The notes under the pieces: generated by a model
Told to the model about the DNA's origin: nothing
The model's database searches: none
The model's input: the letters and a program-made list of their open reading frames with translations, nothing else
Part shown: piece by piece, positions 36,948 through 42,761 of the stretch
Layout of the letters: each line of letters starts with the position of its first letter
Numbering within the stretch: position 1 is the first letter of the stretch
Translations under genes and position numbers: made by a program
Assembly: GCA_048886685.1 (NCBI GenBank)
Contig: JBHLKM010000003.1
Location: forward strand, 128,001 to 192,000
Source of the DNA: Candidatus Hodarchaeota archaeon
GTDB taxonomy: Archaea; Asgardarchaeota; Lokiarchaeia; Sigyniarchaeales; SOKP01
Direction of reading: 5' to 3'
DNA: 64,000 nucleotides

Positions 36948-37643
36948 TTGATTACAATTAATTTTATACCTGATCTATTAATTGAATGTGATTTTAAAAA
37001 TGTTTATTATCCATCTGACGATTCATATTTATTAATTGATTATTTTAGAAAAAAAATAAATGAGGATTTCTTTGATGGTATTAAGCTAGAAAAAGTTGAA
37101 AAAATATTAGATATGGGTACCGGTACAGGTATAATCGCAATTTTTTTTCAAATCCTAAAATCTCTCTACCCAAAATTCAAACCTATAATATATGCCTCGG
37201 ATATTTCAGAAGAATCTATTATTTGTGCTAAAGGTAATGAAATCCTTAATAAAATCAATTATGAAATTGAATACTTTCAATCTGATTTATTTAAGTCTTT
37301 CCCAGATTCTTTAAGATCTAAATTTAATATTATAGTTTTTAATCCCCCTTATTTACCCACTTCTTCAGTTATAAAGGAAAGCACTAATAAAAAAGCTATT
37401 GATCATAGTTGGGATGGAGGCTATAAAGGAATTGAAATATTAACTGATTTCCTTAAAGAAGCGAAGAAATTTCTAAATTTAAAGAACCCTCATTATGTCT
37501 ATTATATTAGTTCTAGTAGCTCAAAAATAGACGAGTTGGATAAACAAATAATTGACCTAGGATATGAGAATGAAAAATTAGAAAAAATTCATATGTTCTT
37601 CGAAGATATTATTTTAAACCGAATACAATATATTAAAAGTTAA
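36948..37643 (+). CDS. HemK2/MTQ2-family protein-glutamine methyltransferase
   Basis: VYYPSDDSYLL, LDMGTGTG, FNPPY, WDGG. Confidence 0.9.
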   Translation: MITINFIPDLLIECDFKNVYYPSDDSYLLIDYFRKKINEDFFDGIKLEKVEKILDMGTGTGIIAIFFQILKSLYPKFKPIIYASDISEESIICAKGNEILNKINYEIEYFQSDLFKSFPDSLRSKFNIIVFNPPYLPTSSVIKESTNKKAIDHSWDGGYKGIEILTDFLKEAKKFLNLKNPHYVYYISSSSSKIDELDKQIIDLGYENEKLEKIHMFFEDIILNRIQYIKS

Positions 37644-38920
37644 AAAGGTCTTCGATTTCTTCTTTTTTCTAATAATGAAATACCATCATTATGCAAAGTT
37701 CTTGTCAGATTGTTCATTAAAAGATCAACTTCATTTGGTTTAAATAATGAACGTATATGTGCCTCAATTTGAGGAATTGGCAGTCCATAATGTTGATTTA
37801 GACTTGATATAGGTAATAAAATTGAAGATATTAAATCCGCTTTCTTAGAAGCTTTTTCGATAGGCTCCTCTTCGTCCATAAAAAATTCGATCCTACAAGG
37901 CGTATCATATCTGGTTGTTTTAAGATAAAATGCATAAAATGAAAGTGGAAAATAATATGGAATTTCCTTTTTTATCCCTGTGTCTCTAATTTTATCAATC
38001 TCTCGTTTACAATTAAAAATGCAGCTCCTTTCAGACTTTTTCAGTATCCTATTAAATAAATCGATGTCTGAGAAATATTTAATAACTTCCCGATAATTTA
38101 ATTTAACTACATCACTTAACTTTGAATAACTTGGCTTTAATAACTGAATTGAATCACATAAAAGATTTGATAATGCAGATGTTCTTGTATCCTTAATAGA
38201 TCCAATAAGAATAATACCTTTTTCTTTACAGTATGAATATAGTTTGTGATATGCTTTTAATAGACTATCATATTTTATCGATATTTCAGGATCTTTTGAA
38301 AATAATAAATTTATAGGCATAATGACAATAGATCCATCAATAATTATAAGATCTATATCATCAGATTTTTTTATCATCTTATTAAGTAAATTGATTTCTA
38401 TATATCTCAGGTCCATTGAGACATCTGCATCAACGGTATTCTCATCTCGATTAATAAAATTCCCCTGAACGAAATAGTTATTAAAACCACTTAAATCTGG
38501 GAAATACTCTATATTAGCAACATGGTTTTCTTTAAAATAGTATTTCACAGCAATTCCTTTTAAAAATGAAAAATCAACATTCATAAATTTCCTTATCACT
38601 GAGCTTCCATCAACACTTACTACATTTAAGCCTCTTAAATTCGAAGATAACAATGATTTCTTTAGGAACTTTTCTTTAATATAAAATCTAGGAAATTTTA
38701 TAAAATGTGAAAAATCTAAATCTTCTATATTTTTTAAGATAATCTTAGAAAATGTTTTCTTTAATTTTTCAACCTTAAGATATTCGTTAGCAATAATTTT
38801 TAAATCTTTCAATAAAATTTGTTCTTTTGTTAAGCCTATATTATTTCTTAATGCACTTTTATTATTGAGAAATGTTAATTTCTCATTATTAAGCTTAATG
38901 GGATTTTCTCTTATTGTCAT
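37640..38920 (-). CDS. nurA: NurA-domain nuclease
   Basis: SVDGS, IIDGS, IK, YGLPIPQIEAH motifs. Confidence 0.8.
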   Translation of the reverse strand: MTIRENPIKLNNEKLTFLNNKSALRNNIGLTKEQILLKDLKIIANEYLKVEKLKKTFSKIILKNIEDLDFSHFIKFPRFYIKEKFLKKSLLSSNLRGLNVVSVDGSSVIRKFMNVDFSFLKGIAVKYYFKENHVANIEYFPDLSGFNNYFVQGNFINRDENTVDADVSMDLRYIEINLLNKMIKKSDDIDLIIIDGSIVIMPINLLFSKDPEISIKYDSLLKAYHKLYSYCKEKGIILIGSIKDTRTSALSNLLCDSIQLLKPSYSKLSDVVKLNYREVIKYFSDIDLFNRILKKSERSCIFNCKREIDKIRDTGIKKEIPYYFPLSFYAFYLKTTRYDTPCRIEFFMDEEEPIEKASKKADLISSILLPISSLNQHYGLPIPQIEAHIRSLFKPNEVDLLMNNLTRTLHNDGISLLEKRRNRRPF

Positions 38921-39020: not shown

Positions 39021-39656
39021 ATGCAGTTAGGAAAAAATCCCTGGATTTTAATCGGGTTAATTTTTCTGGAGATACTCTTTGTTTTAGTACCTGCTTACAT
39101 TTCAAGCAAAATTGAGAAAAAAACATTCAAAACGTTATTGTTTGAAATGGGATTTCAGAAGAATAATGATTTTTTAATTAAAATTATTGCGGGATTAAGT
39201 ATTGGGGTCATATTTTTCTCATTTGGGGATTTCATTCTTATTTTTTTTCGACATATGGTAATAGAAAATTTGTTTGGTACTGAATTTATTGAGGAGGGAC
39301 AAGAAGGAGTAATTAATACTATCCCTTTCCAACCCGATTTGGTCCAAATAATCATTTTTGTTATCCTACAAATAATTATAATTGGCCCTTGTGAAGAAGC
39401 TTTTTTTAGAGGATTTATTATTAAAAAACTTAATGTAAAAATAAAAACAGCATATTCTGTAATAATTTCATCGATTTTTTTTGCACTTTATCACGTTCCC
39501 CCTATGATTGTACCTTTATCTACAACCATTACCTATTTTGGTTATTATTTTGCAATTGGTTTGTTATTAGCTTCGACTTTCATATCGTTTGAATATTCTT
39601 TAATTCCCTGTTCGATATCTCATTCTTGTCTTAATGTCCTAATATTCTTAATATGA
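39021..39656 (+). CDS. CPBP (CAAX/Abi) intramembrane glutamic protease
   Basis: EEAFFRG, FALYH, SHSCLN all intact. Confidence 0.9.
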   Translation: MQLGKNPWILIGLIFLEILFVLVPAYISSKIEKKTFKTLLFEMGFQKNNDFLIKIIAGLSIGVIFFSFGDFILIFFRHMVIENLFGTEFIEEGQEGVINTIPFQPDLVQIIIFVILQIIIIGPCEEAFFRGFIIKKLNVKIKTAYSVIISSIFFALYHVPPMIVPLSTTITYFGYYFAIGLLLASTFISFEYSLIPCSISHSCLNVLIFLI

Positions 39657-39806
39657 ATTTTAGTTCATATGAAATATTAAATTTAAATTAAACAAAAACT
39701 AATTAATATTAGGGCTATTAATATCATAAGGTTTTTTTACACTTTTAATATGATATAACCCTAAAAGCTAAGAGAAATTCCCGAAGGAAATTATTCGTTG
39801 AGGAGA

Positions 39807-40322
39807 ATGACACAATACGATTATACGTTTAAATTAATGATGTTGGGTGATGCTTCAGTAGGAAAAACATCACTCACTCTTAGATACATCTCTGGATACT
39901 TCATGCAAGACTTAAAACTGACATTAGGCGTTGATTTCTATTCTAAGACAACGGTCTTTAACGGTAAGAAAGTTAAATTACAAATTTGGGATTTTGGTGG
40001 AGAAGAGCGATTTAGATTTCTGCTTTCTCAATATAGTAAAGGGGCAAATGGTGCCTTCTTTCTTTATGATATAACAAATCCAATGAGTCTGGAACATCTC
40101 CCAGATTGGACTCAAATTGTTAGAGAAAATGCGGGAGACATTCCAATAATGTTAATTGGTTCAAAAAAAGATTTAGATGAATTTCGAGCAGTTCCACGAG
40201 AAGATGGAATATTAGCCGCTAAAAAATATAATCTTGCTTCTTTTGTTGAACTATCTTCAAAAACAGGAGAAAATGTCGAGAAGGCATTTGATGTATTAAC
40301 TGAGTTACTTTTTGAAGATTAA
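39807..40322 (+). CDS. Rab-like small GTPase
   Basis: YDYTFKLMMLGDASVGKT, LGVDF, WDFGGEERF, GSKKD, ELSSK. Confidence 0.93.
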   Translation: MTQYDYTFKLMMLGDASVGKTSLTLRYISGYFMQDLKLTLGVDFYSKTTVFNGKKVKLQIWDFGGEERFRFLLSQYSKGANGAFFLYDITNPMSLEHLPDWTQIVRENAGDIPIMLIGSKKDLDEFRAVPREDGILAAKKYNLASFVELSSKTGENVEKAFDVLTELLFED

Positions 40323-40430
40323 TAAGATCAAAGAAGTCATTTTTTTTTTAAGATTCTTGTATTAAGCTTAAAATGATATTTACAGATTATAATAATATAG
40401 TTTAAATCGTATAAGAATAGAATGATTATT

Positions 40431-40955
40431 ATGAACGATGAAGAACCGCCAAGACCTAAAGGAATAGATACAAACATTGAAGCACCTCAAATAGATACCG
40501 TAGATATTTATGAAAATAAAATCAATTTAAGTGAGCTTCTCAAGGAATATGATGGAGTTTTAATAGATTTCTTTCGAGGAAACTGGTGAAGTCATTGTAA
40601 AAAGCATTTAAAATTGTTGACAGAAAATTTATCAGAATTTACAACGCGAAATATAAAAATAATCTCTATTGTAAGTGATAGTGTAAGATTACTGAGAACT
40701 TTTAAAGAAGAAAATAATTTTAAAGTCGATTTAATCTCTGATCGTGGTGCTAAAATAGCTAAGGAATATGATGTCTATTGGTTTGCCCCTGGAGGAGGAA
40801 AAAAATACAAAATAAAACAAGCAGTTCCAAGTAAATTTTTAATTGATAAAAAAGGAATGATTATATGGAAATATATCGGCAAAGATAAAACAGATAGACC
40901 TTCCATTGAAATGATGACATCGATTATTGATAAAAATATGAAAAATCCTAATTAA
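40431..40955 (+). CDS. Peroxiredoxin-like (AhpC/TSA, Prx-like/SelU-type) selenoprotein with in-frame UGA (UxxC)
   Basis: From ATG 40431 (or 40422) the frame reads ...LIDFFRGNW-TGA(40587-89)-SHCKKHL... and continues into the 40614 ORF. TGA occupies the first Cys of the FYRGxWCxxC motif. Confidence 0.85.
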
Positions 40956-40957
40956 GA

Positions 40958-41017
40958 ATGAATTGTGCGTGAAAAAACCGAGACGCCCGAGGACGACCCT
41001 GCAAGGGACGGGATTTA
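40958..41017 (+). ncRNA. Candidate 3'-UTR SECIS-like structured element
   Basis: GC-rich island starting 3 nt after the stop. ATGA, then GCGT/ACGC stem with an A-rich loop and GA, then CCCT-GCA-AGGG hairpin. Confidence 0.55.
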
Positions 41018-41111
41018 CTTTTCTAATTTTTTTATTGTTTTCTTAGAAAATTTTTTATTTATCATTTATTATGTATTGTTCAAAACTTAGTTTACTAAAC
41101 TTGAGAAAATT

Positions 41112-42761
41112 ATGTTTAATCGAGCATTTAAAAACTTCTTGACGAAGAAACCTTCAAAGGATGACCTATACCCCTATCTATACTCTATTGCTTTTGGAGA
41201 ATTAGGAAAACCTAAAGAAGAAATTAAAACTAAACCAATTAGATGTAGTAACTGTGATGCAATCTTCACTGATACTGATTTAATTCAGATAGATTCTCAA
41301 AAAGGTTCTTATTATGTATGTGAATTCTGTGGAACAGTCAATACAATTGATAAATCAAAGATTGAGAAAAAGCTCCCAAATGACGTTGATTTTATTTTAA
41401 TAGAAGCATTAAAAAAAGGAGCAGAAAAAGAAGAAAAAATTACAAAAATGGATAAAATCGAGGGAGATCTTTATATTTCTGTGATAGATATCTCTGGTAG
41501 TATGAGTGGTGCTAAAATTGAAGCTGTTAAGAAATCATTAATTCAGACTTTAAAAGATTATAAAATTAATTCTCCTCTCACTAAATATTTATTAATCACA
41601 TTTGAGAGCTCTGTTTACTATTATTTAAGACATGACAAAAATCCTCTAATATTTAGTGGAGATTTACTATTTTCCTTTGAAGGAATGAAAGATCAATTGA
41701 ATAAATCATTAAAAAAGGAAAAATTTTTGGGTTCCTTAGGTGAATTCGCTGATGACTGGATAAGAAAAGTAAAGAGTCTTAGATCGATGGATATGACTGC
41801 ATTGGGTCCCGCACTATATTTTGCAATTCATTCTTTTGAATTATTCAATCATACTGGAAGAATTACATTATTAACTGATGGATTAGCAAATCAAGGAATA
41901 GGAAATTTATCTGGTACTAGTCCTGTTGCTGAAAAAACTTATGAAAATATGGCGGAATTATGTAATCAATATAAAATTATTGTTGATATTGTAGGAGTAT
42001 CAGCAAGTGGAGATAATAATGAAATGGGGCTACAAACATTAGGAAAACTAACTGATAAGACAGGAGGAACATTATATTTAATATCAAGCGAAGAAATGGA
42101 AGCAATTTTTTCTGAACTTAGGCAAATGAGATATATAGCAAAAGATGTAAAGGTTAAAGTTATAGTTCCTCCCAACATTATTATCAAGAACATAACAGGT
42201 GCTTATAGCGCTAAAGGTGTTGTTGAAGGTTCTGAAATAAACTTAGGGGCGATTACAGAAGATAGGGAATTATTCTTAGAACTTGAATCGGCTAAAGAAC
42301 TAGTGGAAAAAGAAGAAGTTCCTGTACAACTTCAAGTGGAATACTTGGATAACGATGGTCGCAAGAGAATGAGAGTTATTAATGATAGAGTAAAGGTGAC
42401 AAAAGATGAAAAGAAATTTAAATCTCAATATGACCAGAGATTTAACGTAATGATGAATATCCAAGCAGCTGGAGGCAGTTTTTATGCAGGAAAAGCCAGA
42501 GAATCAAAAAAACGGTTAATAAACTTAAAACGTGAGATGTTAGCTGAATTTAATCATATGAGATCATCAGGTTTGGGTATTAGTGGACAAAATTTTTCTA
42601 AGGGATTAGCTTATCTAGATGATGAATTGGAGGAAATTGAGATGGAAGAAGAAAAAGCAGCTCATGCTCCGACACAAAGCTACTGGGCAGTTAAAGGTCA
42701 AAAAAGAGCAAGAATTTCCTCAAGTGCTCTAAAAAAACGGATGGAAAAGAAGAAAAAATAA
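41112..42761 (+). CDS. Sec23/Sec24-like protein (Zn finger + vWA trunk + beta-sandwich)
   Basis: PIRCSNC...YVCEFCGTVN zinc finger, DISGSM MIDAS, TALGPAL, LLTDGLANQGIG, TGGT, QLQVEY...RMRV. Confidence 0.78.
   Translation: MFNRAFKNFLTKKPSKDDLYPYLYSIAFGELGKPKEEIKTKPIRCSNCDAIFTDTDLIQIDSQKGSYYVCEFCGTVNTIDKSKIEKKLPNDVDFILIEALKKGAEKEEKITKMDKIEGDLYISVIDISGSMSGAKIEAVKKSLIQTLKDYKINSPLTKYLLITFESSVYYYLRHDKNPLIFSGDLLFSFEGMKDQLNKSLKKEKFLGSLGEFADDWIRKVKSLRSMDMTALGPALYFAIHSFELFNHTGRITLLTDGLANQGIGNLSGTSPVAEKTYENMAELCNQYKIIVDIVGVSASGDNNEMGLQTLGKLTDKTGGTLYLISSEEMEAIFSELRQMRYIAKDVKVKVIVPPNIIIKNITGAYSAKGVVEGSEINLGAITEDRELFLELESAKELVEKEEVPVQLQVEYLDNDGRKRMRVINDRVKVTKDEKKFKSQYDQRFNVMMNIQAAGGSFYAGKARESKKRLINLKREMLAEFNHMRSSGLGISGQNFSKGLAYLDDELEEIEMEEEKAAHAPTQSYWAVKGQKRARISSSALKKRMEKKKK

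Follow-up and report, generated by a model that had tools for sequence, protein, structure and literature searches.

In the 64,000-nucleotide stretch of DNA analysed here (the window), which belongs to a 4.4-Mb assembly of a Promethearchaeota (Lokiarchaeia) archaeon, a gene for a peroxiredoxin-like selenoprotein, prxL, is followed directly by a GC-rich intergenic segment and then by a T-rich tract. The gene and its in-frame UGA codon lie as follows:

40422..40955, plus strand: prxL, peroxiredoxin-like (AhpC/TSA) selenoprotein gene, 177 codons, stop codon UAA at 40953-55
40587..40589, plus strand: in-frame UGA, predicted to be read as Sec, within the redox motif W-U-S-H-C and 369 nt 5' of the AUGA core described below

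When TGA was translated as U, the 177-residue product matched the Pfam families AhpC-TSA (1e-21) and Redoxin (6e-16); an ATG at 40431 is a possible alternative start. A PrxL selenoprotein family with U-x-x-C and U-x-x-U forms is described for Lokiarchaeota in the text of PMC4989117, and its translated sequence identifies prxL as a member of this family. Using a six-frame search of 60 related genomes, we found that 27 of the 35 genomes of the genus possess prxL orthologues sharing this in-frame TGA, and each of the 47 homologous PrxL matches in the 60 genomes contained one to three in-frame TGA codons, with no Cys-form orthologue among these matches. The source genome contains a tRNA-Sec gene and SepSecS (388 bits), and Sec decoding is therefore available. 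The two genes form a small Sec-machinery cluster, with tRNA-Sec at C1 c[221073,221165] and SepSecS about 340 nt away (C1:219573-220730, minus strand).

The neighbourhood of prxL includes several other genes. Directly 5' of it, 39798-40322 (plus strand) encodes a small Ras-family GTPase (Pfam Ras 3e-45; also Roc and Arf), a neighbour typical of Asgard genomes, and the flank continues with a CAAX-protease-like (Rce1-like) membrane protein at 39021-39656 (plus strand) and a NurA-domain nuclease at 37640-38920 (minus strand). The next gene on the 3' side, 41112-42761 (plus strand), codes for a COPII-coat-like eukaryotic signature protein of 549 aa, whose N-terminus is Cys-rich (CxxC...CxxC) and which contains the trunk and beta-sandwich domains of Sec23/Sec24 (Pfam 1.4e-10 and 6e-9).

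Positions 40956-41020, immediately behind prxL, contain 52.3% G+C compared with a window mean of 30.2%, which places them in the top 0.19% of 65-nt windows. Ten islands this GC-rich occur in the window, and as each of the nine others falls within an ORF of 90 aa or more, 40956-41020 is the only intergenic one. The initial annotation had called it the most conspicuous GC-rich intergenic island of the window and had proposed it as the recoding element of the upstream selenoprotein gene. The motif positions listed there were all correct, among them CCCG at 40986-89, CCCU at 40997-41000, GCA at 41001-03, AGGG at 41004-07 and CGGG at 41009-12, and likewise UGAAUU at 40959-64 and GAUUUA at 41012-17. 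Three folds had been proposed: a eukaryote-like hairpin (Fold A), a methanogen-like fold with a purine internal loop closed by C-G pairs (Fold B) and a three-way junction (Fold C). Our analysis of sequence conservation and covariation indicates that the element is a three-armed RNA made of a closing helix (H1), a SECIS stem (H2) and a third arm (H3), with the following parts:

40943..40949, plus strand: 5' strand of H1, AAAUCC plus U40949, the closing helix, overlapping the last prxL codons
40950..40957, plus strand: 5' linker of the junction, AAUUAAGA, containing the stop codon and unpaired in both the MFE fold and the RNAalifold consensus
40958..40961, plus strand: AUGA, 5' half of the SECIS core, unchanged in all 31 orthologues
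40962..40970, plus strand: 5' arm of H2, AUUGUGCGU, pairing with 40983-91
40971..40982, plus strand: apical loop GAAAAAACCGAG, 12 nt, with a run of A and AG at its end
40983..40991, plus strand: 3' arm of H2, ACGCCCGAG, with covariation
40992..40993, plus strand: GA, 3' half of the SECIS core, invariant in the 31 orthologues and followed by the conserved C40994
40994..41010, plus strand: H3, the third arm, between the 3' GA and H1, with the loop GCA
41011..41016, plus strand: 3' strand of H1, GGAUUU, pairing with 40943-48 and directly abutting H3
41019..41041, plus strand: T-rich tract (T4 at 41019-22, T7 at 41027-33, T4 at 41038-41), with the next gene starting at 41112

The MFE fold of 40938-41022 is exactly this H1/H2/H3 junction (-14.7 kcal/mol). 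In it, the AUGA core starts 2 nt past the UAA stop, and H2, with UUGUGCGU at 40963-70 and ACGCCCGA at 40983-90, comprises nine positions, two of which are non-standard (an A.G at the base and a U.C). H3 is formed by the pairs C40994-G41010 and G40995-C41009, an A.A mismatch and the pairing of CCCU with AGGG. The folding stability of the single sequence was not above chance when compared with shuffles (z = +0.51 and -0.48); the case for more than a chance structure is made by conservation and covariation, not by thermodynamic stability. Rfam searches returned no SECIS family at the gathering score in the whole window or at E<=10 in 40800-41200, where only chance snoRNA- and rRNA-like matches appeared, and standard SECIS tools are reported in the text of Mariotti et al. 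2016 (PMC4989117) to miss lokiSECIS elements.

In the genus, PrxL genes with an in-frame TGA gave 31 complete 3' flanks, and each of these has the element in the same position, as has one further flank that is cut by a contig end. The trinucleotide GAC after H2 is nearly invariant, and the apical loop, 12 nt in our copy, is mostly 11 nt long among the orthologues. Two outer blocks are conserved as well. The first, AAUCCCAA, lies 5-9 nt 5' of the AUGA and usually forms the last codons of the gene, and where the CDS ends elsewhere, the motif AAUCCC persists, either within the UTR or in a different reading frame (L024, L004 and L012). The second, UUGGGAUU, follows a hairpin that begins directly past GA-C and has the consensus AACCUUG-YRA-GGGUU. 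The two blocks are complementary to each other, and compensatory C>U with G>A changes in the resulting helix H1 are found in L027 and L024. T runs are present at the matching place in all orthologues, and the tract at 41019-41041 is, from its sequence, presumably an archaeal oligo-T transcription stop.

The three helices were examined for covariation in three alignments, namely a structure-blind MAFFT alignment of the 31 orthologues (A2), an alignment of 65 elements fitted to the covariance model R1 that is introduced below (A4), and a structure-blind MAFFT alignment of 43 cross-family elements including the prxL element (A5). The proportion of paired cells was 86.7% compared with 80.1% after shuffling in A2, 87.7% compared with 66.5% in A4 and 81.6% compared with 65.5% in A5, and the corresponding covariation scores were 0.311 versus 0.178, 0.591 versus 0.204 and 0.527 versus 0.222; for each alignment, 0 of 500 shuffles scored as high, a result that is to be read with the reservation that the aligned elements are related by descent and that shuffle tests overstate significance for such sequences. 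Slid controls stayed at or below 0.12 in A2 and at or below 0.17 in A5. Double changes were seen in 3 of 8 pairs of H1, 8 of 9 pairs of H2 and 2 of 6 pairs of H3 in A2, in 8/8, 9/9 and 5/6 pairs, respectively, in A4, and in 8/8, 9/9 and 4/6 pairs in A5. When RNAalifold was applied to A5, it returned the three helices de novo, with compensatory changes in 13 of the 15 predicted pairs, and H3 was predicted de novo on the MAFFT alignments. H1 was additionally assessed by a duplex test that is independent of any alignment: an element's own two H1 strands paired with a mean of -8.7 kcal/mol, compared with -4.9 kcal/mol for pairing with the tails of dissimilar elements, and in 69% of the elements the own tail was better than at least 90% of the foreign ones. 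For the outer pairs of H3, we discarded an anchor-based count made without an alignment, because the CC/GG register is ambiguous where the 3' strand is GGG. Since H1 and H3 are mostly invariant among the PrxL orthologues, support for these two helices leans on the cross-family set.

It was because the orthologues vary so little in H1 and H3 that we built R1, a covariance model of the element, and used it to search whole genomes. In the 4.4-Mb source genome, R1 found only four sites at E<0.01, and each of them lies just behind a UGA-containing ORF; the genes in question encode PrxL, two VhuD-like proteins with two Sec residues each and a small membrane protein with a GGG-U-V-C motif. R1 matches were present in 36 of 36 genomes of the genus, at one to nine sites per genome, and in all 83 sampled genomes of the family, which represent 11 genera. 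Outside the family they were rare: 2 of 8, 1 of 2 and 1 of 3 genomes in three other families had matches, and none was found in two more families. Among 60 matches that we fetched and that are not orthologous to this gene, 58 had an AUGA, a stem of nine positions, an 11-nt loop, GA-C and H3, and in 58 of the 60, H3 was followed by a strand complementary to 5-9 nt 5' of the AUGA. The sequence of this H1 varies with the gene family (ACCCC/GGGGU, ACCGA/UCGGU, GCUAGAA/UUCUAGC, AUUCUGAA/UUCAGAAU and UAAUCCAAA/UUUGGAUUA). A loose pattern scan of the genome was useless (about 2,950 matches), and a tightened pattern gave seven matches, two of them real; the scan also brought up an HdrA-like ORF, interrupted in frame by several UGA codons, whose 3' end has an element of the same design, with CUGAA/UUCAG as H1 and AACCCA/UGGGUU as H3.

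These results support the proposal that the island acts in recoding, for which conservation behind UGA-containing orthologues, covariation of H1, H2 and H3 in the 3' regions of orthologues and other selenoprotein genes, and specificity for UGA-containing genes all argue. Fold A corresponds to the SECIS core, with its AUGA, nine-position stem, A-rich loop ending in AG and GA, and this is the core of the published lokiSECIS. The three-way junction of Fold C was right in kind and its closing helix was misplaced: the helix supported by our data joins 40943-48 with 41011-16, while pairing of 40959-64 with 41012-17 was observed in 63% of cases, which is the level of the shuffles, and came with no double changes. 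Taken together, we consider it highly probable, judging from these sequence comparisons, that the element is the 3'-UTR SECIS of the prxL mRNA, that it belongs to the lokiSECIS or Asgard type I class, and that the SECIS hairpin is one arm of a three-way junction.

The third arm could also be read as a 3'-end hairpin, that is, a transcript stabiliser or terminator-associated structure which merely adjoins the SECIS ahead of the oligo-T tract. T runs do follow H3 and H1 in all orthologues, and short GC hairpins in front of U tracts resemble intrinsic terminators. However, H3 begins 1-3 nt after the GA in about 90 elements behind unrelated genes, counting all 31 orthologues and 58 of the 60 elements that follow genes other than prxL, and the strand directly after H3 pairs back to a site upstream of the AUGA, with covariation. 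Moreover, two C-G pairs and the loop G of H3 are invariant across gene families, a pattern that suggests specific recognition rather than mere stability. Archaeal termination is not known to require a hairpin, which counts further against this reading, and we regard it as unlikely.

According to a second alternative, only the published simple hairpin (AUGA-stem-loop-GA) matters and the complementarity within H1 and H3 is tolerated without having a function. Published models, as given in their main texts, do comprise core, upper stem and loop only, and H1 and H3 are both short, but compensatory changes accumulate across families in H1, where AU, CG, GC and UA occur in the same columns, and in H3, whose outer pairs covary as AU, UA, GU and GC in the cross-family alignments. 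Such changes are hard to explain without selection for pairing, and we therefore give the idea of functionless outer helices even less credit than the terminator-like reading of H3.

Fold B raised the further possibility that the downstream half of the island is a functional methanogen-type (euryarchaeal) SECIS that either complements or replaces the eukaryote-like hairpin. The sequence of this single copy does allow a CCCG/CGGG helix to enclose a purine-rich internal loop and the CCCU/AGGG helix, and structures resembling the euryarchaeal SECIS (eaSECIS) are reported 3' of eSECIS-like ones in 3.4% of Asgard selenoprotein genes in the text of Huang et al. 2024 (PMC11227280), whose authors nevertheless judge them to be probably non-functional. 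The element shares with eaSECIS its 3'-UTR site and, in the single sequence, a short GC hairpin with three C-G pairs. Within Fold B, the inner hairpin stood up to analysis, being part of H3, whereas the outer helix (40986-89 with 41009-12) did not: its pairing among orthologues was no better than in shuffles (139 and 61 of 500), it was paired in only 34.5% of cases across gene families, and it would use the bases of the covarying H2 arm. In addition, the conserved 5'-GAA_A-3' bulge of eaSECIS between the stems is absent; in its place Fold B has the loop AGGACGA versus A, and H3 contains a 1x1 A.A mismatch, with an orthologue consensus that lacks an internal loop altogether. Nor is there the long GC-rich lower stem of about 10 bp, or three conserved S-S pairs, only two C-G pairs being conserved. 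We thus think it very improbable that the element is a hybrid with a methanogen-type SECIS. The methanogen VhuD SECIS is described in the text of PMC4989117 as also having AUGA...GAC around a stem. Finally, a dispersed repeat or mobile element with no link to recoding, for which nothing speaks except the multiple copies per genome, is a scarcely credible explanation given that the four confident copies in the source genome share one orientation and one position behind UGA-containing ORFs and that the copies are not identical and have covarying helices.

The SECIS type and its association with PrxL are already known, having been published in 2016 (PMC4989117) and generalised in 2024 (PMC11227280). 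According to the text of Mariotti et al. 2016 (PMC4989117), lokiSECIS elements occur in PrxL, VhuU and HdrA-VhuD genes and consist of a 9-bp stem flanked by AUGA on its 5' side and by GA (or AA) on its 3' side, and of a loop of 11 nt, in which most of the first five bases are A and the terminal G is ultraconserved and usually follows an A. The prxL element agrees with this description in lineage, in PrxL family (U-x-x-C) and in its nearness to the stop codon, as well as in the AUGA, the nine-position stem, the A-rich start and AG end of the loop and the GA. Its loop is one of 12 nt instead of 11 nt, a length that falls inside the range of 8-20 nt given for the Asgard type I eSECIS-like model, in which the stem measures 7-15 bp with at most two mismatches (main text of Huang et al. 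2024, PMC11227280). What the prxL element has in addition to the lokiSECIS of the main texts, figures and supplements apart, is the covarying, CDS-overlapping H1 and the third arm H3. A 2026 review still gives the Asgard SECIS, in its text, as core, upper stem and apical loop only, and neither a third arm nor a covarying closing helix overlapping the CDS appears in the texts of the 2016, 2024 and 2026 publications, figures and supplements apart. A full-text literature search for SECIS together with 'three-way junction' likewise retrieved nothing relevant. The suggestion of an undescribed architecture thus does not apply to the core, which is that of lokiSECIS (PMC4989117), and does apply, as far as the main texts go, to H1 and H3, which are probably an undescribed extension of a known SECIS structure.

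Resemblances extend to two further systems. With the eukaryotic SECIS (type I), the prxL element has in common the site in the 3' UTR, the AUGA_GA quartet, unpaired A's in the apical loop, and a lower helix and an internal loop below the core. It differs in that its upper helix is shorter (nine positions) and its internal loop accommodates the hairpin H3 on the 3' side, and the Rfam SECIS models (SECIS_1 and relatives) do not match it. The second system is the k-junction of TPP riboswitches (Wang et al. 2014, PMC4005666), a k-turn whose non-bulged strand carries a third helix. In k-junctions the T helix is coaxial with the C helix, and there are cross-strand A-minor contacts. In the prxL junction, too, a third helix, H3, occupies the non-bulged strand, as judged from a secondary-structure topology that is supported by covariation, and H3 is contiguous with H1, such that coaxial stacking as in the k-junction would be possible. 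The function of the TPP k-junction is unrelated, and the likeness is one of secondary structure. As the linker from H1 to the G of the AUGA measures 11 nt in the prxL element and about 8 nt in VhuD elements, rather than the 3-4 nt of k-turns and k-junctions, membership in the k-junction class is not established.

We infer the recoding activity, the k-turn geometry, the coaxial stacking and the binding partners of the element, and propose the following course of events. By analogy with the eukaryotic SECIS, the AUGA and GA bases presumably pair as tandem sheared G.A / A.G, as in a k-turn. H3, sitting in the strand that leaves the 3' GA, could stack on H1. Once folded, the element would recruit the Sec-specific elongation factor with Sec-tRNASec, either directly or through a putative SECIS-binding protein, and a ribosome pausing at the UGA at 40587-89, which lies 369 nt 5' of the element, would receive Sec instead of terminating. 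The texts of PMC4989117 and PMC11227280 know of no SBP2 in these archaea. Since H1 and the core lie within the footprint of a ribosome at the stop codon, a terminating ribosome would have to melt the element, which would then need to refold. A more far-reaching reading, which we put forward tentatively and rate at somewhat less than an even chance, is that a k-junction-type three-way RNA constitutes the SECIS of Lokiarchaeia (Promethearchaeia), in which H3 and the CDS-overlapping H1 would be required for recoding and would offer a second recognition surface to an archaeal SECIS-binding factor, and that the eukaryotic helix I and internal loop would have been derived from it by loss of the third arm.

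The prxL element is one more clear PrxL example of the published lokiSECIS, and its functional unit probably extends beyond the published hairpin to the covarying three-way junction, which was present in all genomes sampled from the family. Mutagenesis, structure probing and protein pull-downs have concrete targets in H1, in H3 and in the invariant loop G of H3, and a covariance model of the R1 type is better suited for finding unannotated selenoprotein genes in these genomes.

Several relatives have tandem prxL pairs in which a U-x-x-C copy and a U-x-x-U copy, with one and two TGA codons, are found together (G020:C11:39992-41311, G034:C157, G006:C50, G007:C107 and G092:C3). Each tandem copy has its own three-armed SECIS, and the source genome possesses the single-Sec copy only. 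Another family of the order has PrxL homologues (L029 in G053 and L030 in G049; about 35% identity) that contain an in-frame UGA and the motif Y-U-V-P-C, and within 500 nt downstream of these two there was neither an R1 match nor the type I AUGA-stem-GA pattern.

A three-armed SECIS is also located at G000 C2:362218-362304 (minus strand; L034), behind an ORF of about 75-85 aa that contains the motif GGG-U-V-C and for which a single membrane helix is predicted. Small ORFs of a similar kind, with the motifs GGGU.C and TU.S.CM, precede R1 matches in many related genomes (L048, L055, L056, L058, L060, L061, L065 and L088). Other small UGA-containing ORFs stand in front of R1 matches in related genomes (L045, L050, L078, L054, L085, L087 and L093), with motifs such as D-C-D-(L-P)-I-U, C-F-U-H and F-D-C-U-L-S-C, and to judge from these motifs, they may represent further selenoprotein families.
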